From NCBI GenBank assembly GCA_035650735.1, contig DASRGZ010000040.1, positions 1 to 64,000 on the forward strand: DNA of 64,000 bases. Direction: 5' to 3'. This document shows, piece by piece, positions 2,431-44,258 of this stretch. The notes below the pieces were generated by a model that was not told where the DNA came from, made no database searches, and was given only the letters and a program-made list of their open reading frames with translations. Position numbers and translations under genes: made by a program. The stretch comes from Chthonomonadaceae bacterium. GTDB lineage: Bacteria > Armatimonadota > Chthonomonadetes > Chthonomonadales > Chthonomonadaceae. Position 1 is the first letter of the stretch, and each line of letters starts with the position of its first letter.

Positions 2431-2600
2431 GGCTGTGCCCGGCCCTAAAGGACCGGGCTGTGGGCGGCAAGCCCCCTGAAGGGGGCTACTCTCCCTTCTT
2501 GTAACTCTTGAAGGGGACGGATCAACTTCTGGCAGCCCCATTTATGGGGCTTGCCGCCCACAGTCCACCCCTTTAGGGGTGGCTGCCGGCAATTACCGTA
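2431..2600. repeat. Repeat family A (REPIN/IS200-IS605-end-like palindromic element)
   Basis: CCCGGCCCTAAAGGACCGGG ... CCACCCCTTTAGGGGTGG hairpins; homologous copies at 17893-18102 and 53425-53574. Confidence 0.8.
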
Positions 2601-2638
2601 TATATCCTTCATCCTTTCCGAAGGAAGGACCGGCAGCA

Positions 2639-4321
2639 GTGATCCAACGTGCGCGTGAATTGTGGGAAGGTCTCGGTCGGCAAAATCAGATCGTCCTGGT
2701 CGTCTCGTCGCTGGGCGTGCTGATCGCCCTGATCGGCTTTATTGCCTGGGCCAGCACCCCGGAGTATGTGCCGCTGTTCTCGAATCTATCGGCACAGGAC
2801 GCCAACGCTATCAGCGACAAGCTCAAAGAAGGCAACATCCCCTTCCGTCTCCAGCAGGGTGGGACGGCAATTGAGGTGCCTGCTCAGTACCGCGACGAGA
2901 TGCGAATGAAGATCATGAGCCAGGGCTTGCCCGCGCAGTCTACGGCAACCCTGGGCTACGAGCTGCTCGACAAGGGCAGCACCTTCGGCCAGACCCAGCC
3001 GATGGAGGCGATGACGCTCCTGCGCGCCAAAGAAGGCGAGATCAGCAAGAGCATCATGAGCCTCCAGCAGGTCGCCAGCGCCACCGTCCACGTCGCCCCT
3101 GCCGACGACTCGCCCTTCGTTCCCGACAAGCACCCGGCCTCCGCCTCCGTCTTCGTCCAGCTCAAGCCCGGCCAGACCCTCTCCGACGAGAACGTGCGCG
3201 CCATCGTGCGGCTGGTCCAGATGTCCTATACCGGCCTGGCCGACAAGAACATTACGGTCGTGGATGGGCAGGGGGATCTGCTCTTTGACGGCACGCGCAC
3301 CGGCGCGGGCGACCTGACCGACGAGCGCATGAAGCAGCAGCATCAACTGGCGCAGGCCAAGCGCAGCGAACTGCAGACCGCCCTGGATAATACCATCGGG
3401 CCGAAAAAAGCGGTCGTCCTGGTGAACGTGGAACTCAACGCCGACCAACAGGAGATCAAAACCGACAGCGTCGAGCCGGGAGCGGTTACCAGCAAGACCA
3501 CGGACACCGAAGAGCTTAAAGGCGCGGGCAGCGTGCGCGGCGGCACCCCCGGCACCAACCAGAACGTAGCGCCCAACGCGCCCATTGCCGGCGGGGCCGC
3601 GCCTGGCGTCCCCAACTACGTGGCCACCAACAACAGCGACGGCAACTACAAGCACGAGCAGACCACGGCCACCTCGGAGCCGAGCCGCACGGTCAAGCAC
3701 ACTATCGTCGGGCCCGGTCGGATCGAGAAGCTGACCGTCAGCGCCCTGGTAGATACCAAGGTTCCTCCCGATCAGGTCGCCTCCATCAAGCAGATTCTGG
3801 AGACGGCTATCGGCGTGATACCGGGCGATGCCACGCGCCAGGTCTCCATCGCCCAGATCAGCTTCGACCGCAGCAGCGAAGCGGCGGAGGCCAAGGCCGA
3901 AGCGGCAGCCCGCTCTGCTGAGAACTGGTCGCGCCTGCTGGGCCTGGGCGTTCCGCTGGCGATCATGGCGTTGACCTTCCTGCTGCTGGCGCGCGCCCTC
4001 CGCAAGCCGGCGCCGCGCCTGGCCGGGGAGCAGCTGGCGCTGGCAGGCGCCGGAGCCGGCAGCCTGGGCGGCATAACCGTCGGCGCAGACAGCAGGGAAC
4101 TCGCCCTCGCACCCGATGGCACGCCGGTTCCGGGCCAGACGGTCGAGGCCGTGACTGCCGAGGGCATCCCCATTGGCTTGCCCGTCGGATCCGGGCCCAA
4201 GACCTACGACGTCATTGAGGAAGCCTTCGATGCCAGCATGGAAAGCATCCTCCATCTGACCCGGTCCAAGCCGGAGATGGTCGCCGTGCTCATTAAGAGC
4301 TGGATCGCTGAGGAGCAGTAG
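2639..4321 (+). CDS. fliF: Flagellar MS-ring protein FliF
   Basis: N-terminal TM, YVPLFSNLS.QDA..I, GYELLDK, A.EGEI..SI..L..V..A.VH, ASASV; C-terminal TM; GTG start inferred. Confidence 0.93.
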   Translation: MIQRARELWEGLGRQNQIVLVVSSLGVLIALIGFIAWASTPEYVPLFSNLSAQDANAISDKLKEGNIPFRLQQGGTAIEVPAQYRDEMRMKIMSQGLPAQSTATLGYELLDKGSTFGQTQPMEAMTLLRAKEGEISKSIMSLQQVASATVHVAPADDSPFVPDKHPASASVFVQLKPGQTLSDENVRAIVRLVQMSYTGLADKNITVVDGQGDLLFDGTRTGAGDLTDERMKQQHQLAQAKRSELQTALDNTIGPKKAVVLVNVELNADQQEIKTDSVEPGAVTSKTTDTEELKGAGSVRGGTPGTNQNVAPNAPIAGGAAPGVPNYVATNNSDGNYKHEQTTATSEPSRTVKHTIVGPGRIEKLTVSALVDTKVPPDQVASIKQILETAIGVIPGDATRQVSIAQISFDRSSEAAEAKAEAAARSAENWSRLLGLGVPLAIMALTFLLLARALRKPAPRLAGEQLALAGAGAGSLGGITVGADSRELALAPDGTPVPGQTVEAVTAEGIPIGLPVGSGPKTYDVIEEAFDASMESILHLTRSKPEMVAVLIKSWIAEEQ

Positions 4322-4333
4322 AAAGCATACGGG

Positions 4334-5350
4334 ATGAGAAGCCACAACCTTCACTTATCGAATCGCGAGAAAGCCGCCATTCTGCTGGTGGCGCTGGGCC
4401 CGGAGGCCACGGCCCGCATCTTCAAGCACCTGCGCGAGGAGGACATTGAGAGCCTGACCCTGGATGTGGCGCGGCTGGGCAAAATCACCCCGGAAGCGCG
4501 CCGGCAGGTCGTGTCCGAGTTCCATGAGATGTGTCTGGCGCAGGAAGTGATCTCCGAGGGGGGCCTGGAACAGGCCCGCAAGGCTCTGGAGGTCGCCTTC
4601 GGCCAGGACAAGGCCAGCGATATCGTCAACAGAGTCATCCAGGCGCTCCAGGTGCTGCCGTTCGACTTCATCAAGAAGACCGATCCCAGCCAGCTGCTCT
4701 CGTTCCTCCAGGATGAGCACCCACAGACCATTGCGCTGATTCTGGCCCATCTCCACCCCAACCAGGCCGCCACCGTGCTTTCCGGCCTGCCCCAGGAGCT
4801 GCGCGCGGAGGTCGCCCACCGCATTGCCATCATGGACCGGACGCCTCCGGAAGTCATCCGCGAGATTGAGCGGGTGCTGGAGCGCAAGCTTTCCAACGCG
4901 GTTGTCATGCAGGGCTTCACCGCCGCTGGCGGCGTCAAGAGCCTGGTGGAAGTGCTTAACTTCGTGGACCGCACCACCGAGAAGACGATCCTCGAGTCCC
5001 TGACCGAGACCAATCCTGAGTTGGCCGACGAGGTCAAGAAGCTGATGTTCGTCTTCGAGGATATCATCCTGCTCGACGACGCCTCCATCCAGAAGGTACT
5101 GCGCGAGGTGGATACGAAGGAGCTGGCTCTGGCGCTCAAGGGCGTGGGCGAAGAGGTTCAGAACCGCATCTTCAAGAACATGAGCGAGCGTGCGGCCACC
5201 ATGCTCAAGGAAGATATGGAGTTCATGGGGCCGGTCCGCCTGCGCAACGTCGAAGAGGCCCAGCAGCGCATCGTGGGCGTCATCCGGCGCCTGGAAGAGG
5301 CCGGCGAGATCGTGGTGGCGCGCGGCGACGCCGACGAGATCGTGGTTTAG
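4334..5350 (+). CDS. fliG: Flagellar motor switch protein FliG
   Basis: KAAILLV.LG, EHPQTIALIL, MFVFEDI, MGPVRL..VE.AQ. Confidence 0.97.
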   Translation: MRSHNLHLSNREKAAILLVALGPEATARIFKHLREEDIESLTLDVARLGKITPEARRQVVSEFHEMCLAQEVISEGGLEQARKALEVAFGQDKASDIVNRVIQALQVLPFDFIKKTDPSQLLSFLQDEHPQTIALILAHLHPNQAATVLSGLPQELRAEVAHRIAIMDRTPPEVIREIERVLERKLSNAVVMQGFTAAGGVKSLVEVLNFVDRTTEKTILESLTETNPELADEVKKLMFVFEDIILLDDASIQKVLREVDTKELALALKGVGEEVQNRIFKNMSERAATMLKEDMEFMGPVRLRNVEEAQQRIVGVIRRLEEAGEIVVARGDADEIVV

Positions 5351-5354
5351 CCAT

Positions 5355-5855
5355 CCTCACCCCAGCAGACCTCACCCCCGGCCCTTTGTGTAGGGTGTAG
5401 GGGATAGGGTGTAGGGGATAGGGTGTAGGGTCGCCCTCACCCCGGCCCCTCTCCTTGAGAAGGAGAGGGGAGAGGCCCCCACCCCCTGTCCCACTGCTAG
5501 GGTTGGCCCTACCATGGTTCGGGCCTCCGCCTTGCGACCCCCAAGAACAGGGGAGGGGAGAGGAGAAGCCAGTATTCTCTCTGCCCGCGTAGGTGTCGCC
5601 AGGCGGAGGGCTGTGGCAAGGCGGAGGCAGGGGCCCTAACCCTGCCGGCGGCCAGTATTCGCAACCCTTCCACCTTGATGTTGATGTCGCAAGGCGGAGG
5701 CAGAGGCCGTAACCCTGCCGACCCTTGCAGTCAGCGGGCCTGGCTAGGCGGAGATCGCCAGGCAGAGCCGCGAACCGTTGAGCGGCGTCCCTGGCAGTCG
5801 AGCGAGCGCAGCGCCGCCCCTGGCAGCGCCCCACAGCGGCAGGGTTTAGCCTGCC
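5355..5855. repeat. Composite intergenic repeat cluster (family C, heptamer tract, several 46-nt micro-elements, family D half)
   Basis: CCTCACCCCCGGCCC ends, (GTGTAGG/GGATAGG)6 at 5388-5429, micro-elements at 5493-5538, 5686-5731, nested 5740-5827. Confidence 0.85.
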
Positions 5856-5882
5856 GAGAGCATTGATGAAGGAAAACACCCG

Positions 5883-6761
5883 TTGTCCAGACCCAAGTTG
5901 CCCTTTGAGCCGCTGAATGCGCCGCGCGTGGCGCCGCAAAATCCCGGCCCGCCTACTCCCATCAATTGGTTTGAGCAGCTTGCGCCGCGCCTGCCGGAGC
6001 CGCCACCGCCGCCTGCGGCTTCCGTCTCGGAGGCCGGGCCGGCCGGCGTGCGCGCCGCTCTCTTTCGCGACGTGGAGGCGATTGCCGGCGAGGAGCGTCG
6101 GCGCCAGCGCATGAGCGAGCCGGAACCGGAAGACATCGCGCAGATGCGCGCCCAGGCGCAGGAGGAGGCGCAGGCACTGATCGCGCAGGCGCGCGCGCAG
6201 GTCCAGGACATTGAGGAGGAAGCGCGCCGGCAGGGCTATCAGGTGGGGTATGAGCAGGGCTATGTGGCAGGACAACAGGAGGCAACGCGCCTGGTCGTCC
6301 AGCGCGCCGATGACGAGCGCGCCGCCTACCGAGAAGATCTGGCCGCCTTTATCGCCCATATCGAGGCGGAGCGCCAGCGCGCCTGGGCCGAGATGGAGCC
6401 CCAGATCATCGGGCTGGTGTTCGATCTTGCCCGGCAGGTGATCAAGCAGGAGGTGGAGGCCAGCCGCACGGTGGCGCTTTCGGTGGTTGCCAACGCCCTG
6501 CGCCGCGCCGCCGATAGCACCACGCTGCGTATCCGCGTTCATGCCGACGATTTAGAGGCGGTGCGCGCCCATCGCGAAGACCTCCTGACGCTGGTGGACG
6601 GCATTCGCCATATCGAGATAATAGAAGACCGCCGGGTTGGGCCGGGCGGCGCGGTCGTGGAAACCGACGCGGGAACCATTGATGCCCGGATCGAGACGCA
6701 GCTAGACGAGGTTTCCGATGCGCTGGAGCGCATGATCGCGCACCGGGAAGGGCAGAGCTGA
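5883..6761 (+). CDS. fliH: Flagellar assembly protein FliH
   Basis: GxxxG repeats (GYQVGYEQGYVAG), IRVH.DD, GG.VVET..G.IDARIETQL. Confidence 0.9.
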   Translation: MSRPKLPFEPLNAPRVAPQNPGPPTPINWFEQLAPRLPEPPPPPAASVSEAGPAGVRAALFRDVEAIAGEERRRQRMSEPEPEDIAQMRAQAQEEAQALIAQARAQVQDIEEEARRQGYQVGYEQGYVAGQQEATRLVVQRADDERAAYREDLAAFIAHIEAERQRAWAEMEPQIIGLVFDLARQVIKQEVEASRTVALSVVANALRRAADSTTLRIRVHADDLEAVRAHREDLLTLVDGIRHIEIIEDRRVGPGGAVVETDAGTIDARIETQLDEVSDALERMIAHREGQS

Positions 6762-8140
6762 TGCAGGGCAAGATTCTGGAGCTGCCTGATATTCCGCCGC
6801 CGCCCCTGGATCTGGACTACTACCGCCAGAAGCTGCTGCGGCTGGACCCGGTTAAGCAGAATGGCAAGGTCACGCAGGTCATCGGGCTAGTCATCGAGTC
6901 GGTGGGGCCAAACGCAATGGTGGGCGAGGTCTGCAAGATCTTCTACGACCGCGCTAACTACTACGACCCGGAAAAGCCGCCGATCCTGGCCGAAGTGGTC
7001 GGATTTCGGGAGAATCGCGTCCTGCTGATGCCTTTAGGCGTGATGGAGGGCATCAAGCCGGGCAGCGAGGTGGTCGCCACCCGCCAGACGCAGCAGGTGA
7101 TGGTCGGCATGGAGCTACTAGGCCGGATGCTCGACGGGCTGGGGCAGCCGATGGACGGCGGGCCGCCGCTTGAGCTGGCTAAAACCTATCCGGTCAATGC
7201 GCCGCCGCCCAACGCCGTCACGCGCCCCCGCATCCATGAGCCTCTGCAGACCGGCGTGCGCGCCCTCGATGGCTGCCTGACCCTCGGCAAGGGGCAACGC
7301 ATGGGCATCTTCGCCGGCTCTGGCGTCGGCAAAAGCACGCTCATGGGCATGATCGCCCGCAACAGCAGCGCCGACGTCAACGTGATCGCGCTGGTAGGTG
7401 AGCGCGGGCGCGAGGTGCGGGACTTTGTGGAGGAGAGCCTCGGAATTGAGGGCGTGCAGCGTTCCATCGTGGTCGTGGCGACCTCCGATCAGCCTGCGCT
7501 CGTGCGCATCAAGGCGGCGTTGGTCGCCACCGCCATCGCCGAGTTCTTCCGCGATCTAGGCGCGGACGTGATGCTGATGATGGACTCGGTAACGCGCCTG
7601 GCGATGGCGCAGCGTGAGGTCGGCCTGGCGATCGGCGAGCCGCCCGCCACGCGCGGCTATACGCCCAGCGTTTTCGCCCTGCTGCCGCGTCTGCTGGAGC
7701 GCTCCGGCACCTCCGGCACGGGCCAGGGCACCATCACCGGCCTCTATACCGTTCTCGTCGAGGGCGACGATATGAACGAGCCAGTGGCAGACGCCGTGCG
7801 CGGTATTCTGGACGGCCATATCGTCCTCTCGCGCGATCTGGCGCACCGGGGCCACTATCCGGCCATTGACGTATTGCAGAGCGTCAGCCGCGTCATGCCC
7901 GCCATCACGCCGTCCGAACAGGGCGACGCCGCCAATAGCCTGCGCGAAATACTGGCCACCTATCGCGGCGCGGAAGACCTGATCAACATCGGCGCCTATG
8001 TGGAGGGCAGCAACCCACGCATTGACTATGCCCGCTCCAAGATCGAGGCGGCCAACGCCTTCCTGCGCCAGCGCGCCGACGATTCGAGCGCCTATGTAGA
8101 TACCCTCCGCCAGATGTTGACGACCTTCCCCAAACGGTAG
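6761..8140 (+). CDS. fliI: Flagellar export ATPase FliI
   Basis: GQRMGIFAGSGVGKST Walker A, GERGREV, MDSVTR, LDGHIVLSR. Confidence 0.96.
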   Translation: MQGKILELPDIPPPPLDLDYYRQKLLRLDPVKQNGKVTQVIGLVIESVGPNAMVGEVCKIFYDRANYYDPEKPPILAEVVGFRENRVLLMPLGVMEGIKPGSEVVATRQTQQVMVGMELLGRMLDGLGQPMDGGPPLELAKTYPVNAPPPNAVTRPRIHEPLQTGVRALDGCLTLGKGQRMGIFAGSGVGKSTLMGMIARNSSADVNVIALVGERGREVRDFVEESLGIEGVQRSIVVVATSDQPALVRIKAALVATAIAEFFRDLGADVMLMMDSVTRLAMAQREVGLAIGEPPATRGYTPSVFALLPRLLERSGTSGTGQGTITGLYTVLVEGDDMNEPVADAVRGILDGHIVLSRDLAHRGHYPAIDVLQSVSRVMPAITPSEQGDAANSLREILATYRGAEDLINIGAYVEGSNPRIDYARSKIEAANAFLRQRADDSSAYVDTLRQMLTTFPKR

Positions 8141-37686: not shown

Positions 37687-37796
37687 GTAGGAGCAGAAGG
37701 ACAGAACAATGAGTTACATTACGGGTTAAAGCGGGTGTGGATGCGCAAATCCCCAACACGTAGGAGCAGAAGGACAGAACAATGAGTTCCATTACG
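37687..37796. repeat. 37-bp direct repeat pair separated by a 36-bp unique spacer (CRISPR-like single unit)
   Basis: GTAGGAGCAGAAGGACAGAACAATGAGTT(A/C)CATTACG at 37687-37723 and 37760-37796. Confidence 0.8.
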
Positions 37797-37931
37797 CCCC
37801 ATCGGCCATGCCACCTTACCGGCCTGTTCTTGTCTGGCCTCGCAAACGCTAGGGCCTTTCGATGCATGGACACGTTCCACCGCCCGGGTCCTTCCACGGC
37901 CCATAGTTCCAGCGGCAGGGCCTTCCGATGC

Positions 37932-38654
37932 ATGAGAGCATTTAGCCCTCTCTTGTTCCTTGTGACGCTTCTCGTCGCGCTGGCCGCGCCTCCTGCCCAC
38001 AGCCAGACCGATTGGGCCCACAGCGTCGCCCTGCCGAAAGGAGAGAAGCGCGTGCTGCTCTTCAACGGTCGCAACCTGTCCGGCTGGGAAGGCCAGATCG
38101 GGAAGTACTGGTCTGTGGAGAACGGGGCCATTCGGGCGGCAAATGAGACAGAAGTCCCCGCCAGCACCTACCTGTTCACCAAAAAGAAATACCGGAACTT
38201 CCGCCTGCTGTTGGAGGTGCGCCAGACGCGCGGCGAGAAATACTCGACGATGCATTCGGCGGTGGCTGTGCTGGGCGAGAAGCTTACCGACAAGGGCGAT
38301 CCGTTCAGCTTTAAAGGGCCGCTGCTGATGTTCTGTAACGACTGGGGCATCTGGGACGCGAACCGGCGCAATCGGATCTATCCGGTGGGCTACAACGGGG
38401 CGTGGCCTAACCCGGCGGAGAAGGTTGGAGATTGGAACCAGATCGAAGTGCTGGTCATCGGCAACCGGATCCGCATGGCCGCCAATGGCCGACAGGTGAT
38501 CGACTTCACGGACAGTCCTAGTATGCTGAAAGCATCGCCGATTGGATTGCAATTGCACGCCAACGACCGTCCGGAGGAGTATCGTTTTCGTGGGCTGGTG
38601 CTTGCCGAGCACCCGACGGATCGGCTCCTGACGCTCAAGGAAGAAGGCAAGTAA
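37932..38654 (+). CDS. DUF1080 (3-keto-disaccharide hydrolase) secreted protein; start could be 37782
   Basis: Signal peptide; LFNG.NL.GW, W.VENG.I, Y.NF.L.LE, WN..EV...G..I....NG, IGLQLH, FR. Confidence 0.85.
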   Translation: MRAFSPLLFLVTLLVALAAPPAHSQTDWAHSVALPKGEKRVLLFNGRNLSGWEGQIGKYWSVENGAIRAANETEVPASTYLFTKKKYRNFRLLLEVRQTRGEKYSTMHSAVAVLGEKLTDKGDPFSFKGPLLMFCNDWGIWDANRRNRIYPVGYNGAWPNPAEKVGDWNQIEVLVIGNRIRMAANGRQVIDFTDSPSMLKASPIGLQLHANDRPEEYRFRGLVLAEHPTDRLLTLKEEGK

Positions 38655-38895
38655 ATTATGGAACCACCCGCTGCGCTAGAGACACAGAGGAAAAACAAAG
38701 ACAAGAGAAAAGCACAAGAGCAGCCGGAAGATCGGCACTTCCACCCGCTCGACGACCTTGAGGAAAACAAAAACGGAGAAAAGCAAAAGAGCAGTACCAG
38801 CCAGTCCCACGCGGGGATGAAACGGTAAGGACAGGGAAGCGCCAGGGGCACATCAAAATAAAACAGTATTCCTGGGAGGAAGGAGGGTTGGGTGG

Positions 38896-39647
38896 ATGGA
38901 GCGGCACCAGCTACACGGAACTATATGCCCTGATTTTCCAAGACCCGACGCGCAACTGATTCGGCGATTCGCACGGGCCACCGGCCCCAACGCCCTCTCC
39001 TTCACGACGCCCCCGACGCGCAACTGATTCGGCGATTCGCACTGCACGATACCGCCAAAGTAGCCGATGCGATGGCAGGCTACGGCGTAGCCCACCACGA
39101 AATTAAGCCTTTGCGGCCCGAGATGCGGGTCTGCGGCCCGGCGCTCACGGTGCTCACGCGGCCCGGCGATGCCTTATGGGTGCAGGTGGCTATTGAATAT
39201 ATTCGACCGGGCGATGTGGTGGTGATTGACGCGGCAGGTTATCCCGACGTCGCCGTCATTGGGGAACGCCTGACCCACTTTATGAAACTTGCGGGGGGTG
39301 CGGGCCTGGTCGTGGATGGCGCCGTGCGTGATGCGATGGATATCGTGGCCGAAGGCGTGCCCACCTTTTGCCGCAGCGCCTGCATCCGCATTTTTGGCTC
39401 GACCGGCCCGGGAGCCATCGGCGTGCCGGTGACCTGCGGCGGGGTCACCGTCCACCCAGGAGATATTATCCTGGGCGATGCGGATGGAATCGTGGTTATT
39501 CCACAGGAAGATGCCGCCCGCGTGGCCGATCTGGCGGCGGAGCACCTCGCAGGAGAACTGGAGCGTATGCGGCAGGTTGAGTCAGGCAAGAGCGTCAGGG
39601 AAGTCTTTCACCTCGACGCCAAGCTCAAAGTATGGCAGGGAAAATGA
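38896..39647 (+). pseudogene. RraA/HMG-aldolase-family gene frameshifted by a 68-nt insertion (may be translated from ATG 39072)
   Basis: The N-terminus MERHQ...PDFPRPDAQLIRRFA joins DTAKVADAM...GPALTV...DGAVRD...PGD.ILGDADG only if 68 nt are removed. Confidence 0.75.
38944..39042. repeat. 31-bp perfect direct repeat flanking a 37-bp unique insert
   Basis: CCCGACGCGCAACTGATTCGGCGATTCGCAC at 38944-38974 and 39012-39042. Confidence 0.9.
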
Positions 39648-39650
39648 ACG

Positions 39651-40832
39651 ATGGCCACCCCGCTTACGGAGATGAAGCGTCTGATCGTGCAGGCTGTAGA
39701 CCGGCACGCGGTTCTCTGGAAGGAGCTGGCTCTCAAGATCCATGCGCATCCGGAGATAGGGCTTGCAGAAGAAAAGGCCAGCCAGTGGCTCTGCGAGGCG
39801 TTGGCGAAGGCAGGGTTTGCCGTGGAGCGCGGTGTGGCCGATCTGCCCACAGCGTTTGTCGCTTCCCATGGAGAAATAGAGGCCAGACCTGCCGTTGCCT
39901 TTCTGGCCGAGTACGATGCCTTGCCGGAGCTAGGCCATGCCTGCAGCCATAACCTGATTTGCACGGCGGCCTGCCTGGCGGCAACGGCGCTCGCCGAGAC
40001 TATCGGCCCCGAGCAGGCGCGTGTCTGCGTGATTGGCTGCCCGGCGGAAGAGAGCTATGGAGGCAAGGCCCAACTGGTGGCTCACGGGATCTTTAAGGGG
40101 ATAGATATTGCCTTAATGGCGCACGGTTACCGCATGCATCTTCCGGCCAGACCGGCCAGTGGCAGAAAATCCCTCATCTTCGAGTTTTACGGCAAAAGCG
40201 CGCACGCGGCAGCGGCTCCCCACAAGGGAATTAATGCGCTGGATGCGATGATCCAGACCTTTGTCGGCATCAGCCTGCTGCGTCAGCAATTGCGAGGCGA
40301 TGACCGAGTCCACGGCATTATTACGCACGGCGGCAAGGCGCCCAACATCATCCCCGACTATACGCGGGCCGAATTTATGGTGCGCGCTATGGACATCGGC
40401 AGGTTGAACGAGCTGGAACAGCGCGTGCTGGCGTGCGCGCGTGGGGCTGCTGAGGCCACAGGCGCGCAGCTTAAAGTGTCCTCAGGCGGATTAGATATGC
40501 TGCCCATCCGGCACAATCGCACCCTGGAAGGGCTCTATGCTGACAACCTGCGTTTCCTGGGCGAGGAATTAGGAACCGTCCCTGCGGATCAGGGGGCCGG
40601 GAGCACCGATTTTGGCAATGTGTCTCAGGTGGTCCCCGCAGCGCATGGCTATTTCCAGATTACCACCACCGCCCAGGCGCACACCCCGGAATTTGCGGAG
40701 GTCGCCAGGAGCGAGGCGGGGCTTGCGGGCATGGTCACCGCAGCCAAAGCGCTGGCGCTCACGGCGCTGGATAGTATTGAAGATCCCGCGCTGTTAGAAA
40801 AGGCGCGCAGCGAATTTCAGGCTGTAGGCTAG
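39651..40832 (+). CDS. M20 family amidohydrolase (ACY1L2/AbgB-like)
   Basis: IH..PE, EYDALP..GHAC.HN, PAEE..GGK, G.SAHAA..P..G.NALD, GSTD.GNVS. Confidence 0.9.
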   Translation: MATPLTEMKRLIVQAVDRHAVLWKELALKIHAHPEIGLAEEKASQWLCEALAKAGFAVERGVADLPTAFVASHGEIEARPAVAFLAEYDALPELGHACSHNLICTAACLAATALAETIGPEQARVCVIGCPAEESYGGKAQLVAHGIFKGIDIALMAHGYRMHLPARPASGRKSLIFEFYGKSAHAAAAPHKGINALDAMIQTFVGISLLRQQLRGDDRVHGIITHGGKAPNIIPDYTRAEFMVRAMDIGRLNELEQRVLACARGAAEATGAQLKVSSGGLDMLPIRHNRTLEGLYADNLRFLGEELGTVPADQGAGSTDFGNVSQVVPAAHGYFQITTTAQAHTPEFAEVARSEAGLAGMVTAAKALALTALDSIEDPALLEKARSEFQAVG

Positions 40833-42782: not shown

Positions 42783-44258
42783 TTACAGGATGGCGCGCAC
42801 GAATTTTTGGGACTCTTTATCGTACGTATGGAACGGGTTCTTGAGGTCTAGCTGGCGATTGCGCTCGATGTAGACGGCGTCCCAATCGATCACGTAGCGC
42901 GTGCCCGGCCTGGCGATCAGTTGGGAAACGATCTGGCCGCGTCCCCAGGCGCGCGTGTTCTCCGGCGGGGTCGTGATCGCCTCCTCAACCTTCTCATCCG
43001 TGACCAGACGGCGCATGGCTCCGGCCTGCTCCAACCCGGAATGCAGCCCGACTTCCGGGTTGACATTGTGGTATTCCAGGTCCAGGCTCTGCAAAATGTC
43101 GTCCTGCCAGGAGACGCCGTTCTCGTCAATATACTGCTGGTAGAGAACGCGCTTGGCCGCCCAGTCCAGGCGGTCGGCGGTGGAGAGCGGGTCGCGCTCC
43201 AGGTCGTCGAGGATGCTCTCCCACTCCGTCAGCACCATGTCCGTCTGCGCGTCACGGCGGTGCAGATAGCGTTTGGCGGCGTCCAGGTAGCGGCGCTGTA
43301 GTTCCACCGCGGGAATAACCTTGCCGTTGCGCATCCGCACCGGCCATTTTAAGGTCGGGTCGCGGGAAACCGAGCGCAGCGTCTCCAGCGGGTCGGCCAG
43401 CTCCACATCCGGGGGAACGACGCCCTCCTCGATCAGGTCCAGCACCAGGCTCGTCGTGCCGACCTTGAGCATACAGGCGTACTCGCTCATGTTGCTCTCA
43501 CCAAAGAGGATATGCAGGCGGTGGAGGTTACTGTAGGAGTAGTAGGAGTCCCACTTCGGGTTGATGATGGCCCGGTTGAAGCGCACGCGCGAGGAGATGG
43601 TCTTGACGATGTGATCGGCGCGCTGGGAGAGCTGAAAGTCTACCGTTGGATCGATCTCGACGCCGTAGAAGTTGGACACCCAGACATAGTCCACCTCGTG
43701 CTCGCCCAGCGTCATGATATTGTTCTTGCTGCTGGGCCGGGTCAGGCGGTGGCCGCCTACGCGCCCGATGCCGACGAATATCTGGCGAGTGACCAGGAAG
43801 GGCAGCAGGTAGGAGAGCGCGTCGGTGAAGAAGCGGTCCTCGATCTGGACGAGATAATTTTCATGGCAGCCGAAGGTGTGCCCGCCGAAGTGATCAATGC
43901 TGTTATTATGGAAGCTGACGGCATCATCCAGTTGCAGCTCGGACAGGAGGTAGGCCAGCAGGGCCCGGCCCGCCTTATCATGGCGCACCAGGTCCAGCAG
44001 GTCGCAGCACTCGGCGGTGGCGTACTCCTCGTGGCTGCCGACGGCATCAATATAGAGCCGCCCGCCGTTGCGCAGGAAGCCGCCGGCGCGGGCTGGCTCG
44101 AAGGCGTAATCGCGGGCGTGCAGGTCAATCACGCCCAGCTTCTTATCGTAAAAGGCATAATCCTTGACCTGCTCGACAATCTCCTCCGGCGTCCCGACTG
44201 CGGGATCACGCACCATGCAGCCAAACTCTGTCTCGATGCCAAAGATGCGTCTGTCCAT
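42783..44258 (-). CDS. pafA: Pup/UBact-protein ligase PafA
   Basis: RIFGIETEFG, FL.NGGRLY.D..GSH.EYAT.EC, FGCHENY, SQRAD, RLH...GE.NMSE. Confidence 0.9.
   Translation of the reverse strand: MDRRIFGIETEFGCMVRDPAVGTPEEIVEQVKDYAFYDKKLGVIDLHARDYAFEPARAGGFLRNGGRLYIDAVGSHEEYATAECCDLLDLVRHDKAGRALLAYLLSELQLDDAVSFHNNSIDHFGGHTFGCHENYLVQIEDRFFTDALSYLLPFLVTRQIFVGIGRVGGHRLTRPSSKNNIMTLGEHEVDYVWVSNFYGVEIDPTVDFQLSQRADHIVKTISSRVRFNRAIINPKWDSYYSYSNLHRLHILFGESNMSEYACMLKVGTTSLVLDLIEEGVVPPDVELADPLETLRSVSRDPTLKWPVRMRNGKVIPAVELQRRYLDAAKRYLHRRDAQTDMVLTEWESILDDLERDPLSTADRLDWAAKRVLYQQYIDENGVSWQDDILQSLDLEYHNVNPEVGLHSGLEQAGAMRRLVTDEKVEEAITTPPENTRAWGRGQIVSQLIARPGTRYVIDWDAVYIERNRQLDLKNPFHTYDKESQKFVRAIL

Follow-up and report, generated by a model that had tools for sequence, protein, structure and literature searches.

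Repeat-insert-repeat scars in a Chthonomonadaceae genome: an aldolase-family gene broken by a probable off-target Cas1-Cas2 integration, and about one hundred similar units

The stretch of DNA described here, called the window below, comprises 64,000 nucleotides (nt) of a Chthonomonadaceae bacterium (assembly GCA_035650735.1, contig DASRGZ010000040.1, positions 1 to 64,000). It carries a gene of the RraA-like / HMG aldolase family in which 31 nt of coding sequence are present twice, on either side of an insert the size of a CRISPR (short palindromic repeats, clustered and regularly interspaced) spacer. The features of the locus, in window coordinates, are the following.

38896..39647, plus strand: RraA-like / HMG aldolase family gene broken by a 68-nt insertion (Pfam PF03737, homologs, removal of the insertion in a script)
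38944..38974, plus strand: target copy 1, 31 nt of the gene's own coding sequence
38954..38956, plus strand: AAC occupying target positions 11-13, which is where the type I-B repeat has its AACC anchor
38975..39011, no strand assigned: spacer-sized insert of 37 nt
39012..39042, plus strand: target copy 2, identical to copy 1
39025..39027, plus strand: premature stop in the shifted frame, giving a 43-residue (aa) product
39072..39647, plus strand: residual open reading frame (ORF) of 191 aa reported by gene callers
39651..40832, plus strand: M20-family amidohydrolase gene, starting 3 nt past the stop of the aldolase gene
37687..37796, no strand assigned: second scar in the window, with a 37-nt repeat (one mismatch), a 36-nt insert and a 37-nt repeat; class C as defined below

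The two 31-mers are identical and lie 68 nt apart from start to start, with a unique 37-mer between them, as the initial annotation had described. The frame that opens at the ATG at 38896 runs for 43 codons and ends at the stop at 39025-39027, which had also been located correctly. The further claim that removal of 68 nt restores one RraA-family ORF was confirmed by making the deletion in a script, which yielded a 227-aa PF03737 product whose N-terminus aligns with the top homologs. Identity to the best homologs is 72-78%; of the 119 homologs listed, 104 measure 226-229 aa. The insert is absent from all 14 homolog N-termini printed, which align straight through the site and hold the target once; the duplicated sequence was thus single-copy before the event. 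The 31-mer is private coding sequence, found nowhere else in the genome.

Residues 1-36 are missing from the 191-aa ORF, and with them about 16 positions of the Pfam model, its match beginning at approximately model position 17. The scar has probably cost the gene its function, and a polar effect on the downstream amidohydrolase gene is possible. Four other PF03737 members are present in the genome. Judged by its sequence, the scar is not a functional CRISPR array or mini-array, because it shares no canonical repeat with the cas locus and has no leader. A small multi-copy intergenic element lies just 5' of the aldolase gene (38655-38800); it has copies in several relatives and causes a spike in depth.

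A repeat-length duplication around a spacer-length insert had led the initial annotation to propose a natural ectopic spacer integration, and to suggest a comparison with the arrays of the genome. Contig C93 carries one cas1 (type I-B Cas1b), cas2, cas4, cas3, cas5, cas7 and a III-A module beside an array (2502-7721) of 80 repeats of 29 nt and 79 spacers, 72 of which measure 36-38 nt. The dimensions are therefore 31 + 37 nt at the aldolase gene and 29 + 36-38 nt in the array, the I-B repeats of relatives being 30 nt long; the expected cas genes and spacer lengths are in place, whereas the duplication exceeds the resident repeat by 1-2 nt. Several spacers of the C93 array are near-variants of one another. 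The Cas1b (L003:8250-9428) contains an acidic low-complexity insertion of about 65 aa after approximately residue 129, and the same split match occurs in at least 10 relatives. The neighbouring Cas10/Csm1 (L003:12660-14258) matches only model positions 231-753, its N-terminal part apparently missing.

The initial annotation had also recommended a scan for similar two-repeat units. The assembly (6.52 Mb, 224 contigs, 97.6% complete) was scanned for direct repeats at lags of 40-200. The 582 hits reduced to 268 single pairs, 173 of which had a repeat private to the unit and 129 of these a lag of 55-85; a filter for repeats of 26-41 nt and inserts of 28-45 nt left 106 units. These are mutually unrelated in sequence, and their inserts share neither sequence nor ends. 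Of the unique pairs with repeats of 26-41 nt, 114 lay at lag 55-85 and 3, 8 and 9 in the three following windows of equal width, and the units are therefore not due to chance. Approximately 95-100 of the 106 are credible scars, the others being a handful of in-frame protein repeats and two true type I-E repeat remnants. The scars do not cluster by contig (chi2 211, df 223).

The units fall into three size classes. Class A combines a repeat of 28-29 nt with an insert of 32-33 nt (7 units at lag 60-62, one of them a true I-E remnant), class B a repeat of about 30 nt with an insert of 35-39 nt (54 units, including the aldolase scar), and class C a repeat of 35-40 nt with an insert of 33-41 nt (25 units, including the one at 37687-37796). 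The coupled sizes match the CRISPR arrays of this genome and its relatives; the latter carry 30-nt I-B, 29-nt and 36-37-nt repeats, which are the three scar sizes. Among units with perfect copies, 19 have a repeat of 30 nt, 10 of 31 nt and 6 of 32 nt, counts that fit a true duplication of 30 nt with chance extension. By this distribution, the duplication at the aldolase gene may be 30 nt plus one chance base.

Mismatches between repeat copies amount to 0.009 per nt in class B, where 41 of the 53 units used in tests are perfect (one I-E remnant was left out), versus 0.020 and 0.032 in the other classes, and the degree of identity suggests that class B is the youngest. The aldolase scar, taken as recent by the initial annotation, would be so on the evidence of its perfect repeat copies only. 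Several units are nested, and at C224:43547-43709 three copies of a private 29-30-nt repeat enclose two different inserts, forming a neo-array with a second spacer. After removal of the duplication and insert, 12 of 105 sites (11%) score as coding, versus 72% of 3000 random sites, in a test that misses gene ends, the aldolase gene among them; this depletion may reflect selection, target preference, or both. For four of the units tested, empty paralogous sites exist elsewhere in the genome.

Repeat-insert-repeat units also occur inside small multi-copy elements, where the same insert is found in 3-15 copies (window 5616-5720 with 14 further copies; C65:114, C106:32250 and C208:1910; C55, C101 and C132). 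Such units could be scars that a mobile element has carried along as it spread.

Target sites were compared with leader-repeat junctions by positional k-mer counts, for which the two orientations were pooled and neighbouring sites served as control; p-values are uncorrected for approximately 50 positions and 5-7 motifs, a correction that the top ones survive. In the 53 class B sites, AGG at -4 was seen 17 times versus 2.1 expected (p 5e-11) and TGG at -4 nine times versus 1.9, while AAC stood at +11 in 11 sites versus 1.3 expected (p 1e-7) and at +12 in 9, and ACC at +12 in 11 versus 1.4. Identity of these sites to the leader-side 30-mer of the host was 11.9, where neighbouring sites gave 9.5 (p 1e-13). 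At +11 of its 30-mer the host repeat reads AACC, and in three relatives the leader ends just before the repeat in AGGG, TGGC and TAGG. Class B targets as a whole thus resemble a leader-repeat junction. In the type I-B system of Haloarcula, an AACCC approximately 10 bp from this junction is described as essential (PMC4872114). In the aldolase target, AAC is found at +11 and GG at +20-21, but position -4 shows AAG instead of AGG. In the 25 class C sites, GCAA at +4 occurred 10 times versus 0.23 expected; the information content from expectation-maximization (EM) did not separate this class from controls (11.1 versus 10.0-10.6), and the positional test alone did so.

The inserts were then considered for their origin. 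Among 203 candidate inserts, nine that are not repetitive show a 97-100% match, along almost their full length, to unrelated host loci, of which they are internal pieces; one more corresponds to a spacer in an orphan I-E mini-array. Of seven class B sources, four are preceded by CCG and two by CTG, and one starts with the G of CCG. The chance of finding CCG or CTG in six of seven is 1e-4, and rises to about 0.03 if one allows roughly for the motif having been picked afterwards; the two trinucleotides would represent the protospacer-adjacent motif (PAM) of class B. The array does not provide an independent PAM, because its spacers gave no match in 50,697 phage records. Self matches were found for 8 of 106 scar inserts and for none of the 79 spacers in the array (p 0.011), a difference that an escape of the scars from autoimmunity would predict. 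One 43.5-kb contig, C15, is the source of four of the nine self-derived inserts (p 2e-7). We considered whether C15 could be a plasmid or the replication terminus and rejected both, given its housekeeping-like ORFs (by eye) and the lack of a GC-skew switch (rank 60 of 83); restriction-modification-like and dnaE-like ORFs are among those read by eye.

The same scan was applied to relatives. Samples of nine that bear cas1 (~1.48 Mb) gave one credible unit, versus 24 predicted from the rate in the present genome, and samples of three with no cas1 match (0.55 Mb) gave none versus 9 predicted. The credible unit (L051:16694-16791) lies in the near-complete genome G012, of another genus, and consists of 31 + 36 + 31 nt with one mismatch; it has TGG at -4, its insert occurs once in that genome, and it frameshifts a gene that appears from its motifs to be uvrA-like. 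Of three units flagged in G012, the other two proved to be a multi-copy element and a Gly-rich protein repeat and were discarded. The process is not unique to the genome under study, but the load is.

Two candidate causes of this load were rejected as sufficient. The acidic Cas1b loop is shared by at least 10 relatives, of which those sampled are nearly scar-free. To our knowledge, the HU/IHF family is nearly universal in bacteria; no PF00216 match was found in 40 of 41 genomes of the order (this genome and 40 relatives), near-complete ones included. HU/IHF proteins improve the fidelity of spacer integration in vitro, where Cas1-Cas2 goes off target without a DNABII protein (PMC13769266). The present genome, with no PF00216 match, resembles this situation; it differs in that the match is missing almost throughout the order and the sampled relatives are nearly scar-free. 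The lack of HU/IHF is thus not a sufficient cause, and is at most permissive.

Taken together, these data make it very probable that the aldolase scar is the product of a natural off-target integration by Cas1-Cas2. The proposal of the initial annotation is thereby supported, with about 100 further units that have repeat-like targets and PAM-like sources; neither an assembly artefact, nor a lack of cas1 or of matching arrays, nor a transposon remnant, by which it could have been undone, was found. The agent is probably the resident I-B module: about two thirds of our confidence goes to the resident Cas1b and one third to another Cas1. In the proposed mechanism, a type I-B Cas1-Cas2(-Cas4) integrase would insert a prespacer outside the CRISPR array, at a site that looks like a repeat. 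It would capture a fragment of 35-39 nt trimmed next to a CCG or CTG PAM, as the seven other units suggest, and bind a chromosomal mimic of the leader-repeat junction, with [A/T]GG at -4 and AAC or ACC at +11-12, as enriched in the class. Two staggered strand transfers about 30 nt apart, followed by gap filling, would then duplicate the target, in agreement with the geometry seen here; strand transfer and gap filling are established Cas1-Cas2 chemistry. Selection would remove most hits in genes, as the coding depletion suggests, and the aldolase hit probably survived because four paralogs exist. The other two size classes probably record further integrases that are absent from the assembly, one of type I-E (28-29 + 32-33 nt) and one of a system with 36-37-nt repeats (inserts of 34-38 nt).

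Several observations weigh against this interpretation. Scored alone, the aldolase target stands no higher than the 87th percentile of the controls, and the control 95th percentile is exceeded by only 36% of class B sites; the aldolase scar is assigned by its class, and not on its own target score. The initial annotation had suggested that the insert be searched for in the genome and in phages and a PAM sought, and exact-match scans gave no self match and none in viral contigs or species genomes; in metagenome contigs they returned the identical locus only. The PAM side agrees with the polarity of the repeat motif in only three of seven class B units, and a two-feature score for orientation gave two agreements, two disagreements and three ties. 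EM orientation agreed with the PAM side in five of six; this is noisy and was not relied on. No fixed spacer orientation relative to the repeat was thus found, and such orientation is a feature of arrays and not of off-target events, because off-target orientation in vitro is also described as unbiased without extra factors (PMC6698737). Relatives with the same loop-bearing Cas1b are nearly scar-free. Classes A and C have no enzyme in the assembly, because only one cas1 was found and no I-E Cas7; a second PF09827 cas2 was likewise not found. The resident array duplicates 29 nt and the ectopic mode is 30 nt. Lastly, no empty allele was seen, either as a joint bypassing the insert in contigs of four public runs, a weak test since those contigs were built from 31-letter words and a 31-nt repeat would hide it, or in the same genus, because a DNA search of the locus in 40 relatives returned no ortholog, only the small multi-copy element.

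A possible though less likely alternative, with the same chemistry and contained within the Cas1-Cas2 reading, is that the scar was made by another Cas1-family integrase, which could be a casposon-like enzyme or could come from an adaptation module on a phage or plasmid or from a chromosomal system since lost. The difference of one nt between the ectopic mode and the resident repeat fits such an agent, as does the end of the resident leader, which lacks the [A/T]GG motif common to relatives and ectopic sites. Moreover, classes A and C already need absent enzymes, and short orphan arrays remain in the genome, which we take to be of type I-E from their repeat shape and 61-nt period. Against it, class B targets resemble the resident repeat, and class B is the youngest by repeat identity, as expected for a system that is still present. 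The C93 repeat measures 29 nt where relatives have 30, and its leader end is without the motif; a native target weakened in this way could divert the resident integrase, although this cannot explain classes A and C.

Repair by non-Cas pathways, through staggered double-strand breaks patched with captured DNA or through template switching in replication, is unlikely. It would accommodate host-derived inserts and the lack of an orientation rule, but would not yield three narrow, coupled size classes or fixed-position repeat-like motifs, nor a trinucleotide resembling a PAM, nor a renewed insertion into a target already used. The footprints of a small transposon or miniature inverted-repeat transposable element (MITE) with a long target duplication are more improbable still. 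Small multi-copy elements do abound in the genome, and a few units that lie within them exist in 3-14 copies; yet the 106 inserts have no common sequence or ends, the mapped ones are internal pieces of unrelated host loci, no common donor is present in the data, and the aldolase insert has no second copy. Duplications of 30-37 nt also exceed the usual target duplications of insertion sequences.

The insert is present in contigs of four public runs from three studies (2017 and 2024). In three runs (two studies) a 97-nt unitig (38945-39041) has depths of 16.4, 14.3 and 7.9, versus 11.9-14.5, 12.3-16.7 and 4.5-10.1 for the flanks, and in the fourth run (third study) a 151-nt piece runs from repeat 1 into the insert; the scar is called fixed on the basis of depth only. 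An assembly artefact is the least probable explanation, for although this is a metagenome assembly and the runs may include its source sample, the same insert recurs in all four, at flank depth in three, and 38 of the 106 units have mismatched repeat copies or a motif structure that no assembler would create.

Over-expression and test-tube experiments have revealed off-target spacer integration, whose natural relevance has been described as unclear (10.1101/148544). The closest parallel is the neo-CRISPR of the E. coli type I-E system (Nivala, Shipman and Church 2018), in which spacer-sized DNA enters outside the array and the target becomes a two-repeat unit (10.1101/148544, PMC7054753, PMC6698737). 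There, the events were rare and followed laboratory over-production of Cas1-Cas2, with, reportedly, circumstantial natural cases in two species only (10.1101/148544), whereas here about 100 events are fixed in a wild genome, in three size classes, with gene-breaking hits and a possible selection signature. In Haloarcula hispanica I-B, a 30-bp duplication accompanies the AACCC motif; that work used mutated repeats within the array (PMC4872114), while the same anchor position emerges here from natural off-target sites in a bacterium. Cas1-Cas2 of Pyrococcus furiosus carries out full-site integration with a 30-bp separation, and without a preferred orientation, at a non-CRISPR site that shares only 43% identity with the repeat (PMC6698737); the mean target identity of about 40% and the lack of polarity are similar here, but that case was in vitro on plasmid DNA and did not involve heritable chromosomal scars. 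Isolated or orphan arrays are also repeat-spacer-repeat units far from cas genes, with off-target acquisition as one proposed origin; they are described as keeping canonical repeats and leaders, so that immunity is possible (PMC13142298), whereas the scars have private host repeats and no leader. A literature search on the topic and the phylum, with most subscription papers and supplements outside it, found no report of a natural genome-wide scar load.

Three further observations concern the surroundings. An 18-nt in-frame repeat at lag 66 (window 37851-37868 and 37917-37934), in the 5' part of a 3-keto-disaccharide hydrolase ORF, is possibly an old, decayed scar. A Pup ligase gene (PafA, PF03136) lies at 42783-44258 on the minus strand. 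The strongest GC-skew switch among 83 long contigs is on C167 near 35 kb, a candidate origin or terminus.

The significance of the finding lies in the genome-wide record more than in the aldolase gene alone. On balance, we lean towards the view that, in this lineage, CRISPR adaptation acts as a standing mutagen with heritable effects. At least three different Cas1-Cas2 integrases would then account for the roughly 100 fixed scars of a single wild chromosome without HU/IHF. They would have knocked out genes, reversibly because each scar has direct repeats of about 30 nt, and given rise, out of host DNA, to a new two-spacer array. The scars would also form an archive of spacer sampling that autoimmunity has not filtered, with a source hotspot of 43 kb. 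This class of mutation escapes gene callers, which annotate the aldolase gene as a shorter but intact ORF. With about 100 events fixed in one genome, three matters become testable: the cost of adaptation to the host, through the coding depletion, the rise of new arrays from host DNA, of which the two-spacer neo-array is an instance, and the sequence that Cas1-Cas2 reads in vivo, through the fixed-position motifs. If the interpretation is true, the target rules of Cas1, its PAMs and lost CRISPR systems would be readable from genome sequence alone.
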